Positions 8,064 to 26,952 of a stretch of DNA of 64,000 nt are shown here, piece after piece. This stretch comes from Nitrospirota bacterium (GTDB taxonomy: Bacteria; Nitrospirota; Nitrospiria; 2-01-FULL-66-17): contig JBMOMC010000002.1 of assembly GCA_049325335.1 (NCBI GenBank), forward strand, positions 46,612-110,611. The letters run 5' to 3'. Both the position numbers and the translations under genes were made by a program. The notes under the pieces were generated by a model. The model saw only the letters and a list, made by a program, of their open reading frames with translations. It did not search any database and was not told the origin of the DNA. The stretch's first letter is position 1. The number at the start of each line of letters is the position of its first letter.

Positions 8064-10499
8064 TCAGGACGCCTTGTTCTCGATCACCAGCTTGTAGTGA
8101 TCCCCTTCCTGCTCCATGGACACGACGCGGTAGCCGTCGGCCTTCACGCTGCGCGGCACGTTCTCGGCGGGCTCGCCCGCGTCCAACAAGACTTCGAGGA
8201 TTTGCAGGGGATCCATTTCTTCCAATTGGAGCTTGGTTTTGACGTAGTTCATGGGACAGGCCACGCCCAACAGGTCCATTTTGATGGTCGGCGCGGTCGC
8301 GGGCTGAGCCGGAGTAGTCGAGGCGGATGGCGCCGGAGTCGTCTCCGCCTGCGAGCCCTGCGCGACCTTGAGCGAGGCGTCGATCTTGGCGAACGCGGTC
8401 CGGCACGCGTCCGCGAGCGCCTTGGCATCGGCCACGAACCGGCGGGCTTCGTCGAGGGTGATGTGCGATTTGACCGCCGCGCTCCGCTGGATCACGGCCT
8501 CGTACCGATCGCGCGGTACCACGCCCTTGTCCACCATGCGTTGCGAGAATTCCTTGAGCACCAATTCATGGCTGGTTGGCTCGATCGCTTGGGTCACCAA
8601 CAATCCCTTGGCCGCGGCCACGATGCCCAGTTCAGCCCGCATCACCGCGTCAACGGGCTTGTGTTTCTCGATGAGCACGCTGGCGTGCGCCAATTCGTAC
8701 TTGGAGTCTTCCAAGTGTTGTTCCACCATGTTAATGACGCCGCCTGCGCACTCGCCCGCGCCCGCATCCTCCAAGGAGAACGGGGTGTAGGCCCCGTAGT
8801 CCAGGTACTGCGACGGCGCGTCCGCGTGGGACGGCAAGGTGGTGTACGGTTCGAGCGCGGCCGTGATCGGGGCTTTGCCCACGCGGTCCACGAACGCGGT
8901 GAACGATTCGCCGGCTTGACGGTGATCGCGGTAGTACTCCAAGAGCGCGTCCACGACTTCCGGGAGTCGTTTGGCCGGGTACTTACCGCCCGGCAGACCG
9001 AACGCCACGCCGTGATCCGTGGATCGGCCGCCCAGGTGCAACTGGTACGCAGGGATCAACTGCCCGTCGATGCGGTGCCCGAGGCCGTGGAACCCGATTG
9101 ACGCGATGTGATGTTGGGCGCAGGAGTTGGGGCACCCGCTGACTTTGATGTCGATGCCCTTGAGGTCCTCGGCAAAAGCCTTGCCGTTGTGCGCCAATTG
9201 TTCACTGAGCGCGAGCCCGACCCCCTTGGACGAGGTGATGCCCAGACCGCAGGTGTCGGCGCCGGGGCACGTGACCACGTCGCCGACGCGGTCGGCGCCC
9301 GGCGTGCCCAACCCGATCGCGGTGAGCGCCTCGTGCAGCACGAGCAAATCCGCGTCCGCCACCCAGCGCAGGAGAAAGTTCTGAGTCACGGTGACCCGAA
9401 TGCTGCCGTGCGCGAACCGCTCCGTGATGTCGGCCAAACCGCGCAATTGCGCCGTGGTCAAGTCCCCGATCGGCAACGTGACCAATGCCGCGGAGTAGCC
9501 GGCCTGTTTTTGCGGTTTCACGTTGGTGGCCTGCCACGCCTCGAACGCGTGCGAGCGCGACCCGTTGGACGGCGGGCGCTTGGACCCGTTGGTGGGCACC
9601 GGCTCCGACATCGGTGCGAACGCGGCCAGCGTCGCGGCGTCGCGGCCTTCGCATACGAACGCGTACTCCTCAGCGTACATGGCGTAGAACTTCTCGAATC
9701 CGCCTTTTTCAATCAGGAACTTGAGTCGGGCCAGGCTGCGGTTCTTACGGTTGCCGTGGCGGTTGAACACCCGGAGCACGGCTTCACAACGCGGGCGCAA
9801 CTCCGACGCGGGCACCCACTCTTCCAGCAGATAGGGTCGTTTGGGGCTGGGCCCCAAGCCGCCGCCGACCGTGAGCCGGAATCCGATCTCTTCGCGGCCG
9901 TTCACCGTGCGTTTCACGGCCAACACGCCGAAGTCATGGATGCCGGTGAGCGCGCAATCGCTCGCGCAGCCCGAAAACGCGATCTTGAACTTGCGGGGCA
10001 GATTCTCGCACACGGGGTTGCGCAGAAAATGCATGGCCACGCCGTGGGCGTAGGGCGTCACGTCCACCACTTCGTCGCGGCAAATGCCCGCGTAGGGACA
10101 GGCGGTGACGTTGCGGACCGTGTTGCCGCACGCCTCGCGGGTGGTCAGGCCCACCTCCGCGAGTTGCCGCATGATCGCGGCGGTGTATTCGAGTTTGATG
10201 TAGTGGAGCTGAATGTCTTGGCGCGTAGTCAGGTGGGCCACGCCTCGTGAGTAGCGATCGCCGATGTCCGCGACGCGACGAAGTTGAGGCGCGGTCATCC
10301 CGCCGAACGGGATCTTGATGCGCACCATCTGCACGCCGTCTTGCCGTTGGCCGTAGATGCCGTGTTGCAACCGGAACCGTCGAAAGACCTCGGGATGGAT
10401 CTCGCCGCGCAGGAAACGCTGCGTTTCCTGTTCGTAGTTGGCGATCTCCTCCTCGATGTCAGGAGGAATGGTGTGCGTCGCGATTGTTGCCTGTGCCAT
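8064..10499 (-). CDS. sir: assimilatory sulfite reductase (sirohaem/4Fe-4S, ferredoxin-type) with C-terminal TusA-like domain
   Basis: Nitrite/sulfite reductase repeat pattern with cluster Cys (CPGADTCG, CPNSCAQHH); last ~75 aa IKMDLLGVACPMNYVKTK... resemble TusA with a Cys-Pro motif; ATG at 10499 preceded by GGAGG, ORF-track start 10565. Confidence 0.8.
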   Translation of the reverse strand: MAQATIATHTIPPDIEEEIANYEQETQRFLRGEIHPEVFRRFRLQHGIYGQRQDGVQMVRIKIPFGGMTAPQLRRVADIGDRYSRGVAHLTTRQDIQLHYIKLEYTAAIMRQLAEVGLTTREACGNTVRNVTACPYAGICRDEVVDVTPYAHGVAMHFLRNPVCENLPRKFKIAFSGCASDCALTGIHDFGVLAVKRTVNGREEIGFRLTVGGGLGPSPKRPYLLEEWVPASELRPRCEAVLRVFNRHGNRKNRSLARLKFLIEKGGFEKFYAMYAEEYAFVCEGRDAATLAAFAPMSEPVPTNGSKRPPSNGSRSHAFEAWQATNVKPQKQAGYSAALVTLPIGDLTTAQLRGLADITERFAHGSIRVTVTQNFLLRWVADADLLVLHEALTAIGLGTPGADRVGDVVTCPGADTCGLGITSSKGVGLALSEQLAHNGKAFAEDLKGIDIKVSGCPNSCAQHHIASIGFHGLGHRIDGQLIPAYQLHLGGRSTDHGVAFGLPGGKYPAKRLPEVVDALLEYYRDHRQAGESFTAFVDRVGKAPITAALEPYTTLPSHADAPSQYLDYGAYTPFSLEDAGAGECAGGVINMVEQHLEDSKYELAHASVLIEKHKPVDAVMRAELGIVAAAKGLLVTQAIEPTSHELVLKEFSQRMVDKGVVPRDRYEAVIQRSAAVKSHITLDEARRFVADAKALADACRTAFAKIDASLKVAQGSQAETTPAPSASTTPAQPATAPTIKMDLLGVACPMNYVKTKLQLEEMDPLQILEVLLDAGEPAENVPRSVKADGYRVVSMEQEGDHYKLVIENKAS

Positions 10500-10522
10500 G
10501 CGTGGTTCCTCCCGCGAACGGG

Positions 10523-11269
10523 TCAGCGGCTGGCCGTCGCCTTGGACCCGCTGTGCAACCCGCACTCTTTATGTTCCGGTGACTCCCACCACCACCGGCC
10601 CGCCCGGACATCCTCGCCGGGTTTGATCGCGCGCGTGCACGGCGCGCAGCCGATGCTGGGGAATCCCTGATCGTGCAGCTTATTATAGGGCACTTTATTG
10701 GTTTTGATGTACTCCCACACCTGGGACTCGGACCAGTGGATCAAGGGGTTGAGCTTGGCGATGCCGTTGTGCCCGGCGTCGTGCTCGATCATCGGCATGT
10801 CCGCGCGCGTGACGGCTTGGGCGCTTCGCAGTCCCGTGATCCACGCTCGCAACCCGGAGAGGGCCCGACCCAGGGGCTCGACCTTGCGCACACCGCAGCA
10901 CTCCTTGCGGTTCTCGATGCTTTGATAGAACAGGTTCACGCCCTTGGCTCGCACCATGGACTCGACCGCCGGGGCCTGCGGGAAGTAGGTCTCGATCGAC
11001 ACGCCGTAGCGATCCCGGACCGCGTCCATGACCTCGTAGGTCTCCGAGTGCAGGCGTCCGGTGTCCAAACAGAAGATCCTGGGCGTTCGGTGGAGTTTAC
11101 ACAACATGTCGACCAGCACCACGTCTTCCGCGCCGAAGCTGCACGCGAGCGAGACCTGCGAACCGAACTCGTTGAGCGCCCACTTGAGCACGACTTCGGC
11201 CGGTTGCACGGTGTATTGTTGGTTCAAGGTTTTGAGTTGTTCTTGCGTGTACAACGTAGCGGTGCTCAT
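10523..11269 (-). CDS. cysH: adenylylsulfate (APS) reductase, thioredoxin-dependent, Fe-S type
   Basis: PAPS/APS reductase fold; CC...CxxC pairs (ECCGVRK, CAPC) typical of the Fe-S-containing APS-reducing form. Confidence 0.85.
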   Translation of the reverse strand: MSTATLYTQEQLKTLNQQYTVQPAEVVLKWALNEFGSQVSLACSFGAEDVVLVDMLCKLHRTPRIFCLDTGRLHSETYEVMDAVRDRYGVSIETYFPQAPAVESMVRAKGVNLFYQSIENRKECCGVRKVEPLGRALSGLRAWITGLRSAQAVTRADMPMIEHDAGHNGIAKLNPLIHWSESQVWEYIKTNKVPYNKLHDQGFPSIGCAPCTRAIKPGEDVRAGRWWWESPEHKECGLHSGSKATASR

Positions 11270-15833: not shown

Positions 15834-17009
15834 TCAGTTCAAGGGAACGAATGAATTCCGGAACGACATCCACGCCTCCGCAAACTGTTCAGTCCGACCC
15901 ACATTCGACACCTGGTATTCCTCGTGCAGGCCACTACTGCTCTTGAAGACCAGCGCGCCGTATACGGTGACGGGAATCTGATAGTTGTCCTTGAAACGGC
16001 GATCAGGGCTGCCATCTTTGTTTGTCTTCGCCCAAGTATGCTCGATCACCCGGCTATCAGATGGCACATGCTCGTGCTCAATGAACTGAACTGGTGTGTA
16101 AGTCAGAACGACGTCGCGCGTGTCGATAAGGGCAAAGGCCTCTTTGGACACGCGATAGAGAATAAACCCCGGATAGATCCATAGGTCACCACCATTCCTA
16201 TTCGCGAGGTGAGGCACCTGCTGATCCCAGCTAATTAATTCACTCCGTCCCAGTCTAAACGTGACAGGTTCTCTGGTGATGGCCTCTTTGGCGAGGGATC
16301 GTTCGACAATGGCATTTGTTGGCCGTTTGGTCAGCGTGTCCCAGATCTGTTGGGACTCCGCGAGTGTGGCAAATGTGTCGCGCATGCGGTAATAGGGCTC
16401 AGCTTGCTCGCTAGGAATATCGAACTCGGTTGCTAGTGTTGTGAGGCGGAGCTGCTCTTGCAGCTCCGCTTGCTTGGCGGTCGCAGTGTCAGCGTCATTT
16501 TTGAGTTGGGCAAACCGGGTCTTCCACAGATTTTTAAGTAGAAACCCTCGGTCCCATCGTTGATAGCGGTCCGCAGCGTGCTCTTGCTCGCGGTCTGCAA
16601 GCGCAAGTTCCCTCTCAATTTCGTCGTGCTCATCCCGTGTAGTCTTAAGCAATTTCCGAAACTCCTCGAGGCCCTCACTTGTGAGCATTTGAGTGCTCGC
16701 GCTGCGGACCTCCTGAGTCGGTGCCGCCGGTGGTGAGGTTGGTTTTGGGACGGAAACTGTGTCAGGGGGATCTAGAAACGGAGTGATGCTAGGGACATTC
16801 GCCGGATCAGTTGCGTGGAGCCCCCTCCCAGCGATCCGGGTACGAAAGGACACGCCGGTGCCAGGAGCTGAGACGTTTCCATAAACCCCACGTGGTCCGA
16901 TGTTGAGTGAAAACGGGGCGGTTCCAATGGTTGTACTAATACCACTACGCGAAAGATTGAGGCGGACGCCTGGCAGTAGTTTGAATGTCTTCCTGAACCG
17001 CCAACCCAT
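15834..17009 (-). CDS. DUF4236-family protein with coiled-coil middle and uncharacterised C-terminal domain
   Basis: N-terminus MGWRFRKTFKLLPGVRLNLSRSGISTTIG matches the DUF4236 opening; low-GC codon usage unlike neighbours. Confidence 0.65.
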   Translation of the reverse strand: MGWRFRKTFKLLPGVRLNLSRSGISTTIGTAPFSLNIGPRGVYGNVSAPGTGVSFRTRIAGRGLHATDPANVPSITPFLDPPDTVSVPKPTSPPAAPTQEVRSASTQMLTSEGLEEFRKLLKTTRDEHDEIERELALADREQEHAADRYQRWDRGFLLKNLWKTRFAQLKNDADTATAKQAELQEQLRLTTLATEFDIPSEQAEPYYRMRDTFATLAESQQIWDTLTKRPTNAIVERSLAKEAITREPVTFRLGRSELISWDQQVPHLANRNGGDLWIYPGFILYRVSKEAFALIDTRDVVLTYTPVQFIEHEHVPSDSRVIEHTWAKTNKDGSPDRRFKDNYQIPVTVYGALVFKSSSGLHEEYQVSNVGRTEQFAEAWMSFRNSFVPLN

Positions 17010-17220
17010 GTGTCACTCGCTACTATAACAAGGCAGGAGAACCTCAAATACCCCTCCTATTTACTCGGATTCCCTGTCGGAGTCAATCGACTAACAAGCA
17101 ATCCCTCAGGCTCGCTTCAAAATATCGCAGACAAAGGAACTTATCAGCGCAACGCCCACCGAGTGACGCAAAGTAAGGGCCTCTCTCCTAACCCGCGTTG
17201 GTTTTGACACGAGGTCGGCT

Positions 17221-19008
17221 GTGGCTATACTTGGCCGCGTCGCGAGGGGAGCCGTTTGGTCGGTCTTCCTCGCGCTCTTACTTATCGCAGACATGGTGCA
17301 CGAACCCCTCAAGCCGGCATCTGTTGGAGCCCAGCTGGCACCCGAAAATCCTTTGGTCGAGTCCGCCCGCGAGGTGATGCGCGGGTTGGTCAAGGCCGTC
17401 AAAGCGTCGAAGATGTATCTGCCGGAGCACGAGATTTGCCGGAAGTTCCGAGACGATTTTGCAGGGCGGCTGTTGCGGCATCTGGACGAACAGGGCGACC
17501 TGGCGCTGACGGTCAAGGGGTGCGAGTTCTATGTCGGAGACACGCCGGTGTATGAGGAGCCCAACCGGTTCGAGAATCTGGCGTTTCGGTGTTCGTCGGA
17601 CGGCCTTTGTGAATTGGTCCTCCACCAGGGGCTGACGCGCGCAGACCTCGACCGGTTGTTGGATGTGCTCACGTCCGACGCGCGGCCGCTGGACAACGAC
17701 ATTGTCACTAGGTTGTGGGAGCAGCCGATTCCGCACGTCACGTATGAAGTGGCCGAGGTCGATGAAGCCTCGGATCGCGAGGTGGCGCTGTCATCCCGAC
17801 CGCCGGGCGCGAGATCGTTGTCCGAAGCCGCTGATGACGCTCCAGGGGCCGGGGCGCCCGCTCCTGAGCCGGAGGTCATTCCCGACTCGCTGCGTCATGA
17901 CAGTCCGGTGTTCACGCTGACGGATCAGGACATCGAGTTGCTGCAACGGCAAGTGGTGGAAGACAGCACGCAGGATTACGTGGGGCAGTTGATCGATATT
18001 CTGACGTCGATTCTGATGTTGGACGACGATGAGCAGTCGTTTCTGGAAGTGTTGCAGGTGTTGGACGACATTGTGGCCGCCAGCGTCACGCAGGATCGGT
18101 TCGAGCGCGCCAACGATATCGTGAGCCGGTTGTCGGCGTTGCGGGACGACGAGGTCAAGGTCTCGGCGCGCAGTCGCGAGTTGATTCGCGTAGTCTGGAC
18201 CCAGATGGGGAGTTGGGAGCGCGTGGCGCCCTTGGGGAATTCCCTCAGTCGGCAAGGCGCGTGGGAGTCGGACGCCATTGCGCGCTATCTGATCCAACTG
18301 CCGTCTTCCGCCGTGGACTCGCTGATCACTCTGCTCGATCACGTGCAGACCGCCAAAGGGCGACGGATCATTTGCGACGCGTTGACCGCGTTTGCGGGCG
18401 AGGCGCTGGACGCCATGCTCTCGCGGCTTCCGGAGGCGCCTTGGTACGTGGCGCGCAATCTGATCTATGTTCTGGGGCGCGTGAAGGATCCTCGTGCTCA
18501 GCCGGCATTGGAAACGTTCATGGGGCATGCCGATGTGCGCCTTCGCCGCGAAACGCTCAAGGCGTTGGAAGCGCTCGGCGCCGAGCGGCTGGCCGAGGCG
18601 CTTCCCCAGTGGTTGGGTGATGATGACGACGGGGTGCGACTGCACGTGCTTCGTTTGGCGCGCCGTCATCCATCGCGGGATCTTCTGGCGGCCTTGATCG
18701 CGGCGATCAATGACCGCGGGTTTGCCCACCGCAAGGACGCGGAACAGCGCGAGTGGTTTGATACGCTCGCGGATGTTGGGGGCGACGCGGCGTTGTCGCT
18801 GATCCGGCCGTGGTTGGAGCTGGGACGCGGGTGGCGGCAACTCTGGTCGGCGCGGCACGATGCGCGGGCGCGGCATGCCGTGGCGCTGGTGCGGCGAGTC
18901 GGGTCCTCCGCCGCGGTGGCGCTCTTGCGGGAAACCGTCGCGTCCGCGCGAGGGGACATCCGCGAGGAAGCGCGCCGCGCCCTGCAGGACCTGGAGCGTG
19001 CGGCGTGA
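17221..19008 (+). CDS. HEAT-repeat protein
   Basis: Repeated HEAT/PBS-lyase-like units in the C-terminal half; GTG start; stop overlaps next gene start. Confidence 0.7.
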   Translation: MAILGRVARGAVWSVFLALLLIADMVHEPLKPASVGAQLAPENPLVESAREVMRGLVKAVKASKMYLPEHEICRKFRDDFAGRLLRHLDEQGDLALTVKGCEFYVGDTPVYEEPNRFENLAFRCSSDGLCELVLHQGLTRADLDRLLDVLTSDARPLDNDIVTRLWEQPIPHVTYEVAEVDEASDREVALSSRPPGARSLSEAADDAPGAGAPAPEPEVIPDSLRHDSPVFTLTDQDIELLQRQVVEDSTQDYVGQLIDILTSILMLDDDEQSFLEVLQVLDDIVAASVTQDRFERANDIVSRLSALRDDEVKVSARSRELIRVVWTQMGSWERVAPLGNSLSRQGAWESDAIARYLIQLPSSAVDSLITLLDHVQTAKGRRIICDALTAFAGEALDAMLSRLPEAPWYVARNLIYVLGRVKDPRAQPALETFMGHADVRLRRETLKALEALGAERLAEALPQWLGDDDDGVRLHVLRLARRHPSRDLLAALIAAINDRGFAHRKDAEQREWFDTLADVGGDAALSLIRPWLELGRGWRQLWSARHDARARHAVALVRRVGSSAAVALLRETVASARGDIREEARRALQDLERAA

Positions 19009-20474
19009 CGCGCGGCGGGACTCCTCATCACGCGGCGCCCAAACTGTTCGATGCGGTCAAGGGCAGTCACATCCGAGACGAGAACCTGCACCGGATCGGC
19101 AAACGCCTCGTGTATCAAGTTCACATTCTCCTCAAGACCGCGCACATCCATTTGGCGGGCAACGTGGCGCTGAGTCAATCCGCGGACCGGCTGGTCAAGA
19201 CCGTCGTGGAGGTGCACGACTGGCGGGCCGAGCCCGTGTTGCGCCAGGACGGCGATCATGTATACCTCGATGACATTCGGCTCAAGGTTGATCTGGAAGG
19301 GTACATCGGGTTCAGCGAAGTGATCGCCGCTATGCAGGCGCGCGGGGTGGGAAGCGTTCGGTTCGACGCGGGCCTGAGCCCTGGAGACGTCATCGCGTTC
19401 GCGCACGAGTGGGCGACCGCCGCGACCACGACCGCGGAGGAACTGGGCGCGGCCCTGACCCGCGTTGGGGTGTCGCACGTGGAGGTTGCCCCGCCGCTGT
19501 CGGCCCGCGCGAAGCCGTCCCGCGAACACGAGAGCCAGAAAGCGGTGGCCAAACGCACCTACTTCCGCACGATCTCCGCCGTCGCGGAGGTGATGGAGAG
19601 CGTCAAACTCAAACAGGCGGTGGGCGTACGAAAGTCCAAACGCGTGGTGCAGGGCCTCGTGGACAACCTGTTGCAGGATGAGAACACCTTGCTGGGTCTC
19701 ACCACGCTGCGAAGCCACGACGAATACACGTACAGCCATTGCGTGAACGTCTGTATCCTCGCGCTCTCGATCGGTCAGCGGCTGGGTTATGAACGGACGC
19801 ACCTGTCCGAACTCGGCGTAGCCGCCCTGTTCCACGACGTGGGGAAGACGGACATTCCACTGGAGATCCTGAACAAGGCGGGGGATTTCACGCCGGAGGA
19901 CTGGCGGGTCATTCGGCGGCATCCCGTGTATGGCGTGAAAAGCCTGTTGCGCCTCAAGGGGCTCGACGACGTGTCCACGAAGATCGTGATCGCGGGATTC
20001 GAGCATCACCTCAATTATGACTTGTCGGGGTATCCCAAGATCGCAGTGCCGCGCAAACTCACCTTGTTCGGGCGGATCATCTCGCTCGCGGATTGTTACG
20101 ACGCCATGACCGCCTCGCGCGTGTACAGCCGGGTGCCGCTGTCGCCCGACAAGGCGTTGAGCCTCATGGCGGCCAAGGCCGGGACGGTGTACGACCCGTT
20201 ATTGCTCAAGGTGTTCGCCAACACGATGGGCGTGTACCCGGTGGGGACGATTGTGCGGTTCGACACCGGGGAACTGGCGGTGGTCGTCGGTGGCCACCAG
20301 TCCGCGGATCGCCGCGCGCATCCATTGGTCAAACTTATTCGTGACGCCTCGGGCCGCGAGGTGGACGGGGACACGATCGACCTCGCGGCCGCGAACGCGC
20401 GTCCGACGCGTCGGATCGTGGACACCGCGGACGCCCAGTCGCTCGGCATCGACCTCGCCCGGTACTTTCTGTAG
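19005..20474 (+). CDS. HD-GYP domain phosphohydrolase (putative c-di-GMP phosphodiesterase) with N-terminal sensor region
   Basis: HD motif (ALFHDVGK), HHLNYDLSGYP (GYP motif); GTG 19005 overlaps the HEAT gene stop (GTGA). Confidence 0.8.
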   Translation: MTRGGTPHHAAPKLFDAVKGSHIRDENLHRIGKRLVYQVHILLKTAHIHLAGNVALSQSADRLVKTVVEVHDWRAEPVLRQDGDHVYLDDIRLKVDLEGYIGFSEVIAAMQARGVGSVRFDAGLSPGDVIAFAHEWATAATTTAEELGAALTRVGVSHVEVAPPLSARAKPSREHESQKAVAKRTYFRTISAVAEVMESVKLKQAVGVRKSKRVVQGLVDNLLQDENTLLGLTTLRSHDEYTYSHCVNVCILALSIGQRLGYERTHLSELGVAALFHDVGKTDIPLEILNKAGDFTPEDWRVIRRHPVYGVKSLLRLKGLDDVSTKIVIAGFEHHLNYDLSGYPKIAVPRKLTLFGRIISLADCYDAMTASRVYSRVPLSPDKALSLMAAKAGTVYDPLLLKVFANTMGVYPVGTIVRFDTGELAVVVGGHQSADRRAHPLVKLIRDASGREVDGDTIDLAAANARPTRRIVDTADAQSLGIDLARYFL

Positions 20475-20600
20475 CCGCAGCGCGGTCTCCCCTTGATTTT
20501 CCCTCAGGCTGTGGTGTATCTCTATCCCGGTTTTGGGGACGGGTGTCCCCCTCCGGAATATGCATCCAACTGACATGAGAGAGGGGAGGTGATCGTAGTG

Positions 20601-20897
20601 ATGAAGAAGCTCGTGGTGGTGCCCTTGATTGCCGCGCTGTTGATGCTGCCCTTGACCGGGTGTGAATCCAAAAAGCTCAAAGAGGAGAACGCGAGTCTGA
20701 AACAACAAGTGGACTCGTTGACCCAAGAGAAGAACGGGTTGGCGGCGAAGACCGACGAATTGAGCAAGTCCAACATGGACCTCCAGGCGAAGATCGGCGA
20801 CTTGGAAAAGAAGGTGGAAGAGTTGTCAAAGCCGAAACCGGCTCCGAAGCCCGCGGCGAAGGCGCCCGCCAAGAAAGCTCCGGCGAAGAAGAAGTAA
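20601..20897 (+). CDS. Lpp-like coiled-coil lipoprotein with Lys/Ala/Pro-rich tail
   Basis: Signal peptide + lipobox LTGC, heptad-like segment, tail KPKPAPKPAAKAPAKKAPAKKK; GGAGG 11 nt upstream of ATG 20601. Confidence 0.6.
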   Translation: MKKLVVVPLIAALLMLPLTGCESKKLKEENASLKQQVDSLTQEKNGLAAKTDELSKSNMDLQAKIGDLEKKVEELSKPKPAPKPAAKAPAKKAPAKKK

Positions 20898-21043: not shown

Positions 21044-22540
21044 ATGGTTACGCCACGCCTCCGTTCCGCCGCCCCGCGCGGTCCGTTCCGCGCGTTCCAA
21101 CGTCTTCATCTCACCACCAAACTCCTCTTGATGATGGGAGTGCTGACCGTGCTATCGCTCGGTTCGGTCTTCCTGTTCTATGCGTATAATGAACGACTGC
21201 TCATTCGAGAGATTACCGAGAATGTGAACGATCTCTCATCCGCGATCCAGATCAGCGGCGAGGAATTGACCAGCCAGGCGTCCACCAACGAGGGCCGGCT
21301 TCAAGATTATGTGGGCCGGTTGACTAAAAAGGGCGTGCGGGAAATTTCCATCATCAGTAACTCCGAAAAGGTCATTGCCAGCTCAAACCCGACTCGCGTG
21401 GGCCAGAAAATCAACCCGCATCGCAAGGATTTGTTCATCACGGCGCGACTGGGCGAGGGCAACGCCGAAGGCGTTCAGACCCATAATCTCTTGGTGCCGA
21501 TTGTCGTGGACAAGCAACAGGTCGGCTACGCCCACATCATGTTGGTGATGGACGATTACGAGCGGCTGCTCCGGACGAATCTGATCAAACGGTTGATGGT
21601 GACGGGCGGGATCTTCGGGCTCGGAGCCGGACTGGTGCTGTTTTTGTCGTGGCGGTACACGCGTCCCATCTATCAGGTCGTTGCGGTCGCCAAGCAAGTG
21701 GCCGCGGGCAACCTGTCGGCCACGCTTCCTCAAGACCGCGGCGACGAAATCGGCGAGCTGATTGCCAGCGTGAACGAGATGGTCGATCGGCTCAGAGAGC
21801 AGCGCGCCTTGGAAGACCGGCTGCGCGAGGCCGAGCGGTTTTCGGCGTTGGGGCAGCTCGCGGCTGGGATTGCCCACGAGATCCGCAATCCACTGAATTT
21901 CATCAGCCTGTCCCTCGACCGCGTTCGAGATCTCGTCAAGCGGGAGGATGGCGGCCGATCCGATGAGATCCCGGCGCTCCTCGGGAGTATCAAGGGCGAG
22001 GTGTTCCGGCTCAATCGCCTGATCGATAGTTTTTTGAAGTACGGGCGTCCGGTGAAGCTGGCGCGGCAGTGGGTGTCGGTGCGCGCGCTGCTGGACGACG
22101 TGATCGCGCTGGTCCGCCCGAAAGCGGATGAAGCCCGCGTGGCGCTGTCGGTGGACGGGGAGTCCCTTCCGCCGTGTTTCGTGGATCCCGAGCAGATCAC
22201 CCGGTGCGTCATGAACGTGATGCTCAATGCCTTTCAGTCGATGCCGGACGGCGGGAGACTGCGCGTGGTCTTGGCCTTGGAGCCCGGGGGCGACGAGTCC
22301 GTCGGGCGGTTCGTGCGGCTGGCAATCGGGGACACCGGGGCCGGTATCGGAGAAGAGGACTTGTCCCGGGTGTTCGAACCGTATTTTACGACCAAGAAGC
22401 TGGGCATCGGTCTGGGACTAGCCCTGACCAAGCAGATTATCGAAGAACACGGCGGGACGATCGCGATTGCCAGCCGGATCGGCGAGGGAACCACGGTCTC
22501 GATGCGGGTGCCGGTCGGACGCGACGAGGCGCGCGGATGA
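21044..22540 (+). CDS. sensor histidine kinase (TM-HAMP-HisKA-HATPase)
   Basis: H-box HEIRNPLNFIS, N/G boxes (DTGAGIGEED, GIGLGL). Confidence 0.85.
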   Translation: MVTPRLRSAAPRGPFRAFQRLHLTTKLLLMMGVLTVLSLGSVFLFYAYNERLLIREITENVNDLSSAIQISGEELTSQASTNEGRLQDYVGRLTKKGVREISIISNSEKVIASSNPTRVGQKINPHRKDLFITARLGEGNAEGVQTHNLLVPIVVDKQQVGYAHIMLVMDDYERLLRTNLIKRLMVTGGIFGLGAGLVLFLSWRYTRPIYQVVAVAKQVAAGNLSATLPQDRGDEIGELIASVNEMVDRLREQRALEDRLREAERFSALGQLAAGIAHEIRNPLNFISLSLDRVRDLVKREDGGRSDEIPALLGSIKGEVFRLNRLIDSFLKYGRPVKLARQWVSVRALLDDVIALVRPKADEARVALSVDGESLPPCFVDPEQITRCVMNVMLNAFQSMPDGGRLRVVLALEPGGDESVGRFVRLAIGDTGAGIGEEDLSRVFEPYFTTKKLGIGLGLALTKQIIEEHGGTIAIASRIGEGTTVSMRVPVGRDEARG

Positions 22541-23901
22541 CGCGATCGCTGCTGGTGGTGGACGACGAGCGCTCGCAACGCGAGATTCTGGAGCGTATTC
22601 TTCGCGACGAGGGGTACGAGGTGCGCACCGCGGGGACGGCGCGGGAGGCGGCCTCGATTCAGCGCCGTGGTCCGTGTGACGTCGTCCTGAGCGACGTGAA
22701 GATGCCGGACACCGAGGGGGTGTCCGTGCTGAACGATCTGCTCGGCGCGGCGCCAAACTCGACCGTGATCCTGATGACCGCGCACGGAACGATCGACTCC
22801 GCGGTGGACGCGATGAAAAAGGGCGCGTTCGACTACCTGACGAAGCCGCTGGATAAGGATGAGTTGCTGATCACCATCGCGCGGGCGTTCGAGCGCGTGA
22901 GCCTCTTGCGGGAGAACCGGCGGCTGCGCCAAGAACTAGATGACCGCGTTCGGGTCGGAAGCCTCATCGGACACCACCCGTCGATGCAGGACATCATCAA
23001 GGTCATCAAGAAGGTGGCGCCCAGCGCGTCGACCGTCTTGATCGTGGGTGAGAGCGGCACCGGCAAAGAGCTCATTGCGCGCGCGATTCATGATGAGAGC
23101 CCCCGACGGGAGCTGCCGTTTCAGGCGATCAACTGCGCGGCCATTCCCGATCCGCTGATGGAAAGCGAACTGTTCGGCTATGAGAAGGGGGCGTTCTCCG
23201 GCGCGCAGACTCGCAGCATCGGCCTCTTCGAGGCGGCTCACCGCGGGACGATCTTCCTGGATGAGATCGGCGACCTCGGGCTCGGTCTGCAGGCGAAAAT
23301 CTTGCGCACGTTGCAGGAGCGGACGATTCGCCGGGTCGGGGGACAAGAAGAAGTCCCGATCGACGTTCGCGTGGTGGCGGCGACCAACAAAGACCTCGAA
23401 GCGGAGATCACCGCGGGTCGGTTCCGTCTGGATCTGTTCTATCGCCTCAACGTGGTGACGCTCCGGGTGCCGCCGCTTCGCGAGCGTACGGCGGACATCC
23501 CGTACCTGGTCGACGCGTTTCTTCACAAACACGAGGGTATGGACCGTGGCGCCAAGACCATCTCGAAAGACGCACTGCGCGTGCTGATGGACTATCCGTG
23601 GCCGGGCAACGTCCGTCAGTTGGCCGCGACCATCGAGCGCGCGGTACTGCTCTGCGAGAAAGATGAAATTCAGGTGGATGATCTCCCGCCGGAAATCCGT
23701 CGGCCGCCGTCTCCGCTTCCCACCCCGTTTCAACTCCCGGTCGGCGGCGTGTCGCTCGATCAGCTCGAACGATCCTTGATCGAACAGGCGATGGCTCAGA
23801 GTCATGGAGTGATCGCCAAGGCCGCCCGTCTCCTCGGGCTCTCATACAAGACGCTCCAATATCGGCTCGAGAAGTTGCGGGCCGCCGACCCGCCGACCTG
23901 A
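22537..23901 (+). CDS. sigma-54-dependent response regulator (NtrC family)
   Basis: Receiver domain, AAA+ domain with GESGTGKE and GAFSGA, C-terminal HTH; ATG overlaps kinase stop (ATGA). Confidence 0.9.
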   Translation: MTRSLLVVDDERSQREILERILRDEGYEVRTAGTAREAASIQRRGPCDVVLSDVKMPDTEGVSVLNDLLGAAPNSTVILMTAHGTIDSAVDAMKKGAFDYLTKPLDKDELLITIARAFERVSLLRENRRLRQELDDRVRVGSLIGHHPSMQDIIKVIKKVAPSASTVLIVGESGTGKELIARAIHDESPRRELPFQAINCAAIPDPLMESELFGYEKGAFSGAQTRSIGLFEAAHRGTIFLDEIGDLGLGLQAKILRTLQERTIRRVGGQEEVPIDVRVVAATNKDLEAEITAGRFRLDLFYRLNVVTLRVPPLRERTADIPYLVDAFLHKHEGMDRGAKTISKDALRVLMDYPWPGNVRQLAATIERAVLLCEKDEIQVDDLPPEIRRPPSPLPTPFQLPVGGVSLDQLERSLIEQAMAQSHGVIAKAARLLGLSYKTLQYRLEKLRAADPPT

Positions 23902-25326: not shown

Positions 25327-26952
25327 ATGGGCCGGCGCACACCCGCCAAGGGACGGTCGCGACGCCCGAGGGCGTCTCCACGGACGGCCGCGACGCCGTC
25401 GAAGCTCTCCACGCTCCTGGAACACCTCCCCGGCATGATGTATCGGTCGCGGGCCGACGGGCGTCACACGATCGAGTTCGCGAGCGAGGGGTGTTTCGAC
25501 TTGACCGGGTATCGCCCCGAGGCGTTGACGGCCGGGATGACGAGGCCGGATCTGGTCCATCCCGACGACCAATGGTCCGTGGAGCGCGCCATTGGAGACG
25601 CGGTGGGCGCCAAACGCGCGTTTCGGGTGGAGTACCGATTGCGGACCGCGTCCGGGGAGACGCGGTGGGTCTCCGAGCAGGGGCGGGGAGTGTACACCCG
25701 TCGCGGCGCGCTCACCGCGGTGGAAGGCTACGTCAGCGACATCACGGAGCAGAAATCGGCCGAGCGGTTGCTGGCCGAGCAGGCGATCCGCGATGCGCTG
25801 ACCGGTTTGTACAACCGCCGATTTTTCGACGAACGCATCGACATTGAGTTGGCCCGCGCCAGACGCAACGGCCACGCCGTCGCGTTTTTGATGTGCGATC
25901 TTGATCATTTTAAATCCATCAACGACAGCCGGGGGCATCAGATCGGCGACGAGGTGCTCAAGGCCGTGGCCAACGTGATCATGGCGGCCACGCGCGGCAG
26001 CGACATGGTCGTGCGGTGGGGGGGCGATGAAGTCGTCATCGTATTGTCCGAAACGAACGAAGCCGGCGGCCGTATCGTGGCCGACCGCATTCGGCGGGCG
26101 GTGTGTCGGCTGAGCGAGGCCCGGGACATCCGGTTCGACATCAGCATCGGGATCGCGGTGTTCCCGAGCCACGGCGAATCCGTGAGCCAGATCATTCGGC
26201 TCGCCGACCGCGCGCTGTATATCGCCAAAAAAAGCGGGGAGCGCATCCATGTCGGGGACGAACACTACCGGTTGGACGAACAGGCCATCAAAGTGGTGTT
26301 TCAGCCGATTGTGGACGTCTGGTCCGACCAGGTGTTGGGATACGAAGCCCTGAGCCGAGACCCCGAGGGCCGGTTGAGCGTGGCCGAGTTGTTTCGCAAG
26401 TACCACGTGGTGGGTCAACTCGACGAACTCAAAACGATCTGTTTCAAGGAGCAGTTGCGGGTCGCGGAGGAACTCCGATTGAACCGGATTTTCCTGAACG
26501 TGGATTTCCACGTCTTGGAACATCTGGAACCGCCGCCCAAGCCGGACGGCACCGACGTCATCGTCGAAATCTCCGAGCGCGACGCGCTCCACGACGTGGA
26601 GCGGCATTTGGAGATCGCGGTGAAGTGGCGCGCGTGCGGCTACAAGTTCGCCATCGACGATTTCGGCGCGGGCTTCGTGTCGCTGCCGTTCGTGGCGCGG
26701 CTGATGCCCGAGTACATCAAGATCGACCGATCGCTGGTGCTCCAAGCCGTGGCGTCGGACACATTTAAGGGGTTTTCCAAACATCTCCTAATCGCCTTGA
26801 GGACCTATGCCACCGAGGGGATCATCGCCGAGGGGATCGAAACGGAACGAGAACTGGCGGCGATGAAGGGGATCGGGATTTTTATCATCCAAGGGTTTCT
26901 TTTGGGGCGTCCCCGGGCATTGGGGCCGGACCAGTCCGCCGACGCCGCGTAG
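25327..26952 (+). CDS. PAS-GGDEF-EAL protein (variant GGDEV motif; EAL residues intact)
   Basis: PAS region, GGDEF domain with RWGGDEV, EAL domain with YEALSR, DDFGAGF, EGIETE, QGF. Confidence 0.85.
   Translation: MGRRTPAKGRSRRPRASPRTAATPSKLSTLLEHLPGMMYRSRADGRHTIEFASEGCFDLTGYRPEALTAGMTRPDLVHPDDQWSVERAIGDAVGAKRAFRVEYRLRTASGETRWVSEQGRGVYTRRGALTAVEGYVSDITEQKSAERLLAEQAIRDALTGLYNRRFFDERIDIELARARRNGHAVAFLMCDLDHFKSINDSRGHQIGDEVLKAVANVIMAATRGSDMVVRWGGDEVVIVLSETNEAGGRIVADRIRRAVCRLSEARDIRFDISIGIAVFPSHGESVSQIIRLADRALYIAKKSGERIHVGDEHYRLDEQAIKVVFQPIVDVWSDQVLGYEALSRDPEGRLSVAELFRKYHVVGQLDELKTICFKEQLRVAEELRLNRIFLNVDFHVLEHLEPPPKPDGTDVIVEISERDALHDVERHLEIAVKWRACGYKFAIDDFGAGFVSLPFVARLMPEYIKIDRSLVLQAVASDTFKGFSKHLLIALRTYATEGIIAEGIETERELAAMKGIGIFIIQGFLLGRPRALGPDQSADAA

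Follow-up and report, generated by a model that had tools for sequence, protein, structure and literature searches.

A conserved overlapping gene pair of Nitrospirota predicted to encode a HEAT-repeat protein and a divergent HD-GYP phosphodiesterase with related N-terminal domains

HD-GYP proteins are the less understood class of phosphodiesterases for cyclic di-GMP (c-di-GMP) and cyclic GMP-AMP (cGAMP). Precedents for phosphodiesterases that work via dedicated protein partners are the REC-HD-GYP protein RpfG, which contacts GGDEF-domain proteins, and the Escherichia coli "trigger" phosphodiesterases, such as PdeR. A census of HD-GYP proteins (Galperin & Chou, 10.1101/2021.11.05.467447) gives their signature as HHExh[D/N]GxGYP, associates the guanine-recognition motif RxY[K/R] with c-di-GMP specificity, describes the N-terminal domain DUF3391 as having its four strands first and then two helices, and records that many HD-GYP proteins carry undefined N-terminal regions. 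Variants with an Rxx(Q/N) motif have been shown experimentally to favor 3',3'-cGAMP (Wright et al., bioRxiv 10.1101/600031). Here we describe a pair of overlapping genes, A and B, in a 64,000-nucleotide stretch of DNA from a Nitrospirota bacterium (GenBank assembly GCA_049325335.1, contig JBMOMC010000002.1, positions 46,612 to 110,611 of the forward strand), which is called the window at its full length. Gene A encodes a HEAT-repeat protein and gene B an HD-GYP protein; the pair recurs in all of the informative related loci, and profile comparisons indicate that the two products share a homologous N-terminal domain. The census makes no mention of HEAT, Nitrospirota, Geobacter, or N-terminal domains besides DUF3391 and DUF3369, and we found no description of the A-B pair in the literature on HD-GYP proteins with HEAT repeats, on heterodimers, or on Nitrospira. 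The elements of the pair, in window coordinates, are as follows.

17293-19008, forward strand: gene A, N-terminal domain plus HEAT-repeat protein, 571 amino acids (aa) from ATG 17293 (open reading frames [ORFs], homologue alignment, an indel in locus L001, and a HEAT_2 match)
19005-20474, forward strand: gene B, N-terminal domain plus HD-GYP phosphodiesterase (predicted), 489 aa (Pfam; NCBI protein P0035 is 100% identical over the full length)
19005-19008, forward strand: GTGA overlap of the start of B with the stop of A (sequence; RTGA recurs in relatives)
18993-18996, forward strand: Shine-Dalgarno-like GGAG for gene B, within the coding sequence of gene A (read from the sequence)
17204-17231, forward strand: promoter-like site for the A-B operon, TTGACA-16 nt-TATACT (11/12 consensus positions; near-identical in L001)

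The initial annotation had placed the stop of the HEAT-repeat gene over the GTG start of the HD-GYP gene, and this was borne out: the TGA of gene A (19006 to 19008) overlaps the GTG of gene B (19005 to 19007), while the left end of gene A was corrected to ATG 17293. The GGAG lies 8 nucleotides (nt) 5' of the GTG, and most related loci have GGAG or GGGAG-like strings at a similar spacing from the start of B. Conservation in protein B sets in at aa 10, and GTG 19005 is the sole start codon between there and the in-frame stop that opens the last 60 nt of the frame; further along the sequence, the next in-frame start evident by inspection is a GTG at codon 36, and its use would delete invariant residues. 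The same start is used in the NCBI model P0035 (489 aa, 100% coverage, identical protein), and in eight related loci a GTG or ATG occupies the identical position, overlapping the upstream TGA. The alternative that would have spoken against coupling, an HD-GYP start further downstream with its own promoter, was not found, and no promoter-like site was detected within the 3' part of gene A. Thus, the features expected of a coupled pair, namely an overlapping or abutting stop and start, an internal Shine-Dalgarno sequence, and conservation in relatives, are all present at the sequence level. Overlaps of 4 nt are very common between neighboring bacterial genes, and the overlap alone is ordinary; what appears to go beyond chance is the conservation of both the overlap and the pairing.

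To place the window in context, we compared it with related loci from Nitrospirota metagenome-assembled genomes, metagenome contigs, and the complete genome of Desulfuromonas carbonis; counts refer to the 17 loci that reach far enough to be informative. In all 17, a B homologue was immediately preceded on its own strand by an A homologue, so that the co-occurrence of the two genes, proposed earlier as a check, is conserved and not a peculiarity of the window. The junctions comprised 11 RTGA overlaps of 4 nt (L001, L002, L004 to L009, L012, L016, and L019), 3 other overlaps, and 3 gaps; overall, the genes overlapped by 1 to 11 nt in 14/17 loci, and the junctions ranged from -11 to +28 nt. Together with the GTGA of the window itself, these numbers support the co-expression of A and B that the initial annotation had suggested. 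Loci were found from both sides of the pair. Scans of genomes and metagenomes with A yielded L001, L002, L004 to L009, and L019; in the first eight of these a B homologue followed directly, with a GTGA or ATGA junction in every case and with 71 to 91% identity where complete (48% in the truncated L009). In L019 the A protein was only 24% identical, and the next gene overlapped it by ATGA and opened with a B-type N-terminal domain (E = 3e-16). Nine B homologues of 45 to 51% identity (D. carbonis CP015080, L013, L014, L016, L017, L018, L020, L021, and L022) each had a gene for a 569- to 593-aa HEAT_2 protein immediately upstream on the same strand, and the three such upstream proteins that were compared (L012, L013, and L014) were full-length A homologues (26 to 29% identity, E values of 1e-43 to 1e-77). 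The pairing therefore holds down to about 24 to 29% identity of the HEAT-repeat protein and across two phyla. The genes flanking the pair varied by locus and included an isc operon, RelA/SpoT, histidine kinase/response regulator genes, various kinases, and CstA; because the flanks differ between loci, the conserved unit is the pair itself.

Both families are large. At E <= 1e-30, a profile of the A family matched 1077 representatives (50% clusters), of which the best 150 were mostly single-stretch matches in proteins of 540 to 620 aa; at the same threshold, the corresponding B search returned 999 clusters, with lengths of 476 to 497 aa in almost all of the best 120. Within the close clade, identity was 71 to 91% for B versus 44 to 81% for A. 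The stronger conservation of B is as expected for a catalytic subunit accompanied by a faster-evolving adaptor and lends weak support to the assembly of the two proteins proposed below.

The initial annotation treated A as a HEAT scaffold and missed that A is more than this: the relation between the two proteins is indicated most strongly by the homology of its N-terminal domain to that of B. Residues of protein A are numbered here along the 595-aa maximal ORF.

17341-17763, forward strand: N-terminal alpha/beta domain of gene A, aa 41-181 (hhalign against the B N-terminal domain, profile cross-matches, and AlphaFold2 model)
19074-19499, forward strand: N-terminal alpha/beta domain of gene B, aa 24-165

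Comparison of family alignments with hhalign matched A aa ~41-181 to B aa 24-165 over 139 columns (probability of 93.3, E = 2.8e-7), and with 141 A sequences the match rose to a probability of 96.4 (E = 1.3e-9, score of 62). The real comparisons scored 50 to 62, versus 12.8 for a reversed template, at most 25 for fifty column shuffles (at most 18 for the comparison that scored 62), and 12 for the A N-terminal domain against the catalytic half of B. In addition, a hidden Markov model (HMM) of the A domain matched 56/116 B proteins with E values of 1e-3 or below (best, 1e-8), in each case at the N terminus, and the B-domain HMM matched 13/141 A proteins (best, 8e-6). The homology was visible only with the deeper family alignments: direct BLASTP of A against B gave nothing (best E value of 2.0), and shallow alignments compared by hhalign did not reach significance (E = 0.16). 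A homologue search with the B N-terminal domain alone was uninformative, returning only 4 proteins owing to a limitation of the word index. Models built with AlphaFold2 showed the same order of secondary-structure elements in both domains, H-H-E-E-E-H-E-H-H-E for A (aa 44 to 177) and H-H-E-E-(E)-H-E-H-H-E for B (mean predicted local distance difference test score [pLDDT] of 85.7; predicted TM score of 0.80). At the tip of helix 1, both carry the pattern K-x4-[Y/H]-x3-N, formed by K61, Y66, and H/N70 in A and by K44, H49, and N53 in B. No match to the domain was found by Pfam in 82 diverse members or by NCBIfam in the two window proteins, no counterpart was found in the PDB, no cofactor-binding fold was recognized in the fold search, and no further copy was present in the window. 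On this profile evidence, A and B are taken to share a homologous alpha/beta domain of ~140 aa at their N termini.

The remainder of protein A consists of two parts.

17764-17916, forward strand: acidic Pro/Ala-rich linker of gene A, aa 182-232, predicted to be disordered (pLDDT of <50 over aa 180-230; poor conservation in alignment A1)
17917-19005, forward strand: HEAT-like helical solenoid of gene A, aa 233-595

The linker has an isoelectric point (pI) of 4.3. The Pfam HEAT_2 match covers only aa 397 to 474 (E = 1e-10, 42 bits versus a cutoff of 27.7), and the AlphaFold2 model of A (mean pLDDT of 77) extends the helical solenoid well beyond it, to aa 235 to 594 (~360 aa); protein A thus contains tandem helical-hairpin repeats that HEAT profiles recognize and that form a solenoid, which is a generic protein-binding surface. 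Across 141 diverse members, the most conserved positions were K58, Y66, D127-G128-x-R, E142, and D160-x-x-T-x-L-W166 in the N-terminal domain and D-x-R-W-Y-x-V-R-N (405 to 413), R442, E444, D467, R473, F501, and E508 in the solenoid. Neither A nor B contained STAS, HATPase anti-sigma kinase, or PP2C domains, which are the components of RsbV/RsbW-type partner switching. The localization or partner-switch module proposed in the initial annotation is hypothetical.

Downstream of its N-terminal domain, protein B is composed of the following regions.

19515-19709, forward strand: basic, highly conserved helical linker of gene B leading into the catalytic domain, aa 171-235 (alignments A2 and A3; pI of 9.9)
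19710-20219, forward strand: HD-GYP catalytic domain of gene B, aa 236-405 (HD_5 and HD matches; invariant metal ligands)
20220-20471, forward strand: C-terminal region of gene B of ~84 aa, aa 406-489, beginning GVYPVGTIV (conserved in A2 and A3 across the B family)

The C-terminal ~84 aa had no Pfam match, and the linker may be an S-helix by analogy with the proteins discussed by Galperin and Chou (10.1101/2021.11.05.467447). The catalytic domain matched HD_5 (3e-24) and HD (1.5e-13) above the cutoffs over aa 236 to 398, with the GYP motif present, and its nearest solved structures were PmGH (4mcw, 1e-21) and the cGAMP-specific V-cGAP3 (5z7c, 2.5e-21). All seven metal ligands (H245, H277-D278, H306, H334-H335, and D366) and the GYP Tyr were invariant in 116 relatives, which argues for a working metal site. 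The position of the Glu that binds the third metal (E185 in PmGH) aligned with Tyr241, which was invariant (116/116) and places B in the binuclear subgroup by the criterion of section 6 of 10.1101/2021.11.05.467447. The signature reads HHLNYDLSGYP in protein B, so that HH, D, and GYP are kept and the canonical Glu and Gly are both Leu; these Leu variants were near-invariant in the family (L336 in 114/116, L340 in 95/116). Judged from its sequence, B represents a divergent HD-GYP subgroup.

Regarding its substrate, the RxY[K/R] motif is absent from B: the window protein and its clade have RVYS, and the family (n = 116) has RVYN in 91 members (78%), RVYS in 20, RVYH in 3, and RVYR in 1. The Rxx(Q/N) motif of cGAMP-selective enzymes is likewise absent from the window protein, with its RxxS, but present in most family members. 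An RxxS enzyme, HdgA, has been reported still to hydrolyze c-di-GMP (personal communication in 10.1101/2021.11.05.467447). Since the specificity motifs deviate, the substrate of B could be c-di-GMP or 3',3'-cGAMP. The label of c-di-GMP hydrolase given to B initially thus stands in part: with the metal ligands kept, a predicted cyclic-dinucleotide phosphodiesterase is well founded, but the specificity for c-di-GMP is not, given RxxS/RxxN in place of Rxx[K/R]. On the same strand as the pair, the window also encodes a PAS-GGDEF-EAL protein (25327 to 26952, forward strand), in which the active site has the variant GGDEV, the guanine-specifying Asp is canonical (GHQIGD), and an EAL motif is present; from this we conclude that the organism has c-di-GMP metabolism. 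We found no gene for a cGAMP synthase in the window, and the Asp of the neighboring GGDEF protein is the canonical one.

The maximal ORF of gene A (17221 to 19008, forward strand; 595 aa) opens with GTG 17221, but ATG 17293 is most likely the start. This assignment is based on three observations: the first 24 codons, which are hydrophobic, were missing or unconserved in 18 homologues (alignment A1); the near-consensus promoter match at 17204 to 17231 covers GTG 17221; and in L001, an 81%-identical locus, that GTG and the conserved ATG are in different frames because of a 2-nt indel. We considered whether the hydrophobic codons might encode a membrane anchor and rejected this, as they are unconserved and precede the likely start codon. 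The products of both genes are 100% identical to NCBI proteins from a single 453,804-bp contig. In the public annotation, however, the protein of gene A (P0001, 543 aa) begins only with Met53 of the maximal ORF (window position 17377); this would remove residues 45 to 52 (LVESAREV), which are conserved in all homologues, and the deposited model therefore looks too short. The TTGACA-16-TATACT site is a putative operon promoter predicted from its sequence. The block containing it and ~20 nt beyond (17202 to 17249) was near-identical between the window and L001, where coding DNA was only ~80% identical, and this phylogenetic footprint suggests a real, possibly regulated, promoter or leader for the operon. 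No riboswitch or other RNA was recognized in the leader: Rfam gave no matches in the window at the gathering score, and a scan of 16950 to 17420 gave only a chance snoRNA match (E = 0.95).

The reading that we favor, with a probability of roughly 0.6, is that A and B form a self-contained two-gene operon, wide in Nitrospirota and present in D. carbonis, that supplies an HD-GYP catalytic subunit together with an obligate, stoichiometrically co-expressed regulator or scaffold, A; the data suggest that the pair is an uncharacterized two-subunit signaling enzyme. The promoter at about 17204 to 17231 would drive both genes, and ribosomes finishing A would reinitiate on B at the RTGA overlap, yielding a fixed proportion of A to B. 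B would be the catalytic subunit, a divergent, probably binuclear-metal phosphodiesterase with either c-di-GMP or 3',3'-cGAMP as its cyclic-dinucleotide substrate, and A would be its noncatalytic partner, made of the paralogous N-terminal domain, the disordered acidic linker, and the ~360-aa HEAT solenoid. We infer that A and B assemble as a hetero-oligomer, most simply via their paralogous N-terminal domains, and that A, as a regulatory or adaptor subunit, tethers or gates the phosphodiesterase through its HEAT surface. Protein A is acidic (pI of 5.05, net charge of -24) and protein B is basic (pI of 8.9, net charge of +6), and these opposite charges weakly favor assembly. The data above show the operon structure, the conservation of the pair, the common domain, and an intact metal site in B, whereas the physical contact, its location in the N-terminal domains, the direction of regulation, and the substrate are inferences.

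Several observations weigh against this two-subunit reading, and some of them lend themselves to other explanations. The overlap is not universal: in L014, L013, and L020 the two genes are separated by +4, +14, and +28 nt, respectively. A hairpin at 18971 to 19007 (forward strand; -25.8 kcal/mol, z score of -2.4) encloses the Shine-Dalgarno sequence and GTG of gene B, but a comparable one was found only in L006 and was absent from seven other orthologous junctions (z scores of -2.3 to +1.8 in the other loci); sequestration of the ribosome-binding site by such a hairpin was therefore rejected as a general coupling mechanism. The missing Glu of HHE and Gly of DGxGYP mean that the catalytic competence of B is assumed. 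Finally, the named source organisms were all Nitrospirota save one Desulfuromonas, so that part of the synteny may reflect shared descent, although the flanks vary. This predominance of one phylum, the frequency of 4-nt overlaps in bacteria, and the departures from HHExh[D/N]GxGYP and RxY[K/R] would all suit an ordinary operon with inherited synteny and no functional coupling, or a degenerate enzyme, with B acting by protein contacts or hydrolyzing something other than a cyclic dinucleotide; some degenerate HD-GYPs have been proposed to act only through protein contacts. We nevertheless regard this explanation as quite improbable, since the pair was kept while both flanks changed and is present in a Desulfuromonas genome, a shared domain is unexpected for unrelated neighbors, and the complete set of metal ligands and the GYP Tyr are invariant.

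The N-terminal domains themselves permit other relations between A and B. Outside the short helix 1 pattern, their conserved residues differ (K58, Y66, D127-G128, D160, T163, and W166 in A; E26, K33, Q38, K44-T45, H49, N53, D84, and D96 in B), so that the two domains may bind different things and not each other, and neither the 10 long A homologues nor the top 120 B homologues that were inspected included an A-B fusion of the Rosetta-stone type; both points count against a complex of A and B. The absence of fusions would agree with A and B being parallel sensors, in which the N-terminal domain binds a small-molecule or redox signal, each protein senses the same cue independently, and the outputs differ (HEAT-mediated protein binding for A, cyclic-dinucleotide hydrolysis for B), with co-expression reflecting co-regulation only. 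N-terminal domains on HD-GYP proteins are mostly sensory (Galperin & Chou, 10.1101/2021.11.05.467447), and the invariant polar residues cluster at the tip of helix 1 and the next loop, where K-x4-[Y/H]-x3-N aligns in both families. However, the divergence of the invariant residues beyond that motif speaks against one common ligand, no cofactor-binding fold was recognized, and strict adjacency with start-stop overlap over deep divergence is more typical of subunits in fixed stoichiometry; we therefore consider independent sensing unlikely. The domain common to both proteins and the tight pairing with a phosphodiesterase would also fit a receptor and its eraser, with A binding the cyclic dinucleotide in its N-terminal domain or HEAT groove, B acting as a dedicated resetting phosphodiesterase, and the N-terminal domain of B serving as an allosteric site for product or substrate; a c-di-GMP enzyme is encoded nearby, as noted above. 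This scheme is purely speculative, and with no c-di-GMP-binding motif or fold (PilZ, RxxD I-site, or MshEN motif) detected by Pfam or fold search, we give it little credence.

Within the two-subunit reading, a more specific version is possible but decidedly tentative: the N-terminal domain would be a heterodimerization (or sensor) module that builds a two-subunit holoenzyme, in which the catalytic half of A has been replaced by a HEAT adaptor, and the RxxN majority of the B family may be tuned to 3',3'-cGAMP. If true, such tuning would extend cGAMP signaling to Nitrospirota, and the noncanonical specificity motif makes the B family a candidate for widening the range of cGAMP-degrading enzymes. 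One of the undefined N-terminal regions of HD-GYP proteins can now be defined as a real domain, which is modeled with confidence in both proteins and whose family numbers about a thousand sequence clusters. A genuine A-B complex would represent a conserved HD-GYP phosphodiesterase of hetero-oligomeric make-up that has its own adaptor subunit, and would give access to the targeting of local second-messenger degradation in nitrite-oxidizing and related Nitrospirota and in metal-reducing Desulfuromonas.

The surroundings of the pair provided some additional observations. Many Nitrospirota relatives (L014, L015, L017, L018, L021, and L022) have the pair immediately 5' of an Rrf2/IscR-IscS-IscU-IscA-HscB-HscA-Fdx iron-sulfur assembly cluster, and a link between a putatively iron-dependent HD-GYP enzyme and Fe-S assembly is conceivable. 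A RelA/SpoT gene lies downstream of the pair in L013 and L016. Directly upstream of gene A, L014, L017, L018, L021, and L022 have a chorismate-binding (pabB-like) gene; the window has instead a 391-aa DUF4236 protein (15834 to 17009, reverse strand) divergent from the operon, and because the pabB-like gene adjoins gene A in related loci, the DUF4236 gene looks like an insertion into conserved synteny. Downstream of the pair, the window encodes a coiled-coil lipoprotein (20599 to 20897), a HAMP histidine kinase (21044 to 22540), and a sigma-54 response regulator (ending at 23901). Further away, an 833-aa ORF (8064 to 10565, reverse strand) encodes two nitrite/sulfite-reductase modules, made up of NIR_SIR and the ferredoxin-like half domains, and has a TusA sulfurtransferase domain at its C terminus, a fusion that looks uncommon.

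Among described systems, the single-polypeptide, cytosolic DUF3391-HD-GYP proteins of the Bd1817/PA4108 family resemble B in having an N-terminal nonenzymatic domain, a long helical linker, the HD-GYP domain, and a short C-terminal extension, and both are soluble. The element order of the N-terminal domain, however, is opposite, with two long helices first and the strands after them in B, no DUF3391 (PF11871) was recognized at the N terminus of B, and no obligate, domain-sharing partner gene has been described for that family. PmGH, the Persephonella marina GAF-HD-GYP protein (PDB 4mcw) that serves as the reference for HD-GYP catalysis, shares the HD, H, HH, and D ligands and the GYP Tyr with B, but it has a trinuclear iron site using E185 where B has the invariant Tyr; its KPG motif is KAG in the window protein and KPT in most relatives, its RxxK is RxxS and RxxN, respectively, and its N-terminal domain is a GAF domain, which that of B is not. 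Of the cGAMP-selective HD-GYPs, or GAPs (PmxA with RxxQ and Bd2325 with RxxN; 10.1101/600031), Bd2325 shares its RxxN with 91/116 B members. Bd2325 was considered as a possible member of the B family and rejected, as it has a Bd1817-like N-terminal domain (PMC10482364). The partners of RpfG and PdeR differ from A in being c-di-GMP enzymes or transcription factors, with no overlapping gene and no shared domain. Similarly, A is set apart from the CpcE/CpcF phycocyanobilin lyase and PBS-type HEAT proteins (YibA and NblB): its scores were far below the NCBIfam equivalog cutoffs (19.4 bits versus 300 for NblB and 13.3 versus 330 for the CpcE lyase), no bilin chemistry is expected, the partner of A is an HD-GYP enzyme, and the element that the two partners share is the non-HEAT N-terminal domain.

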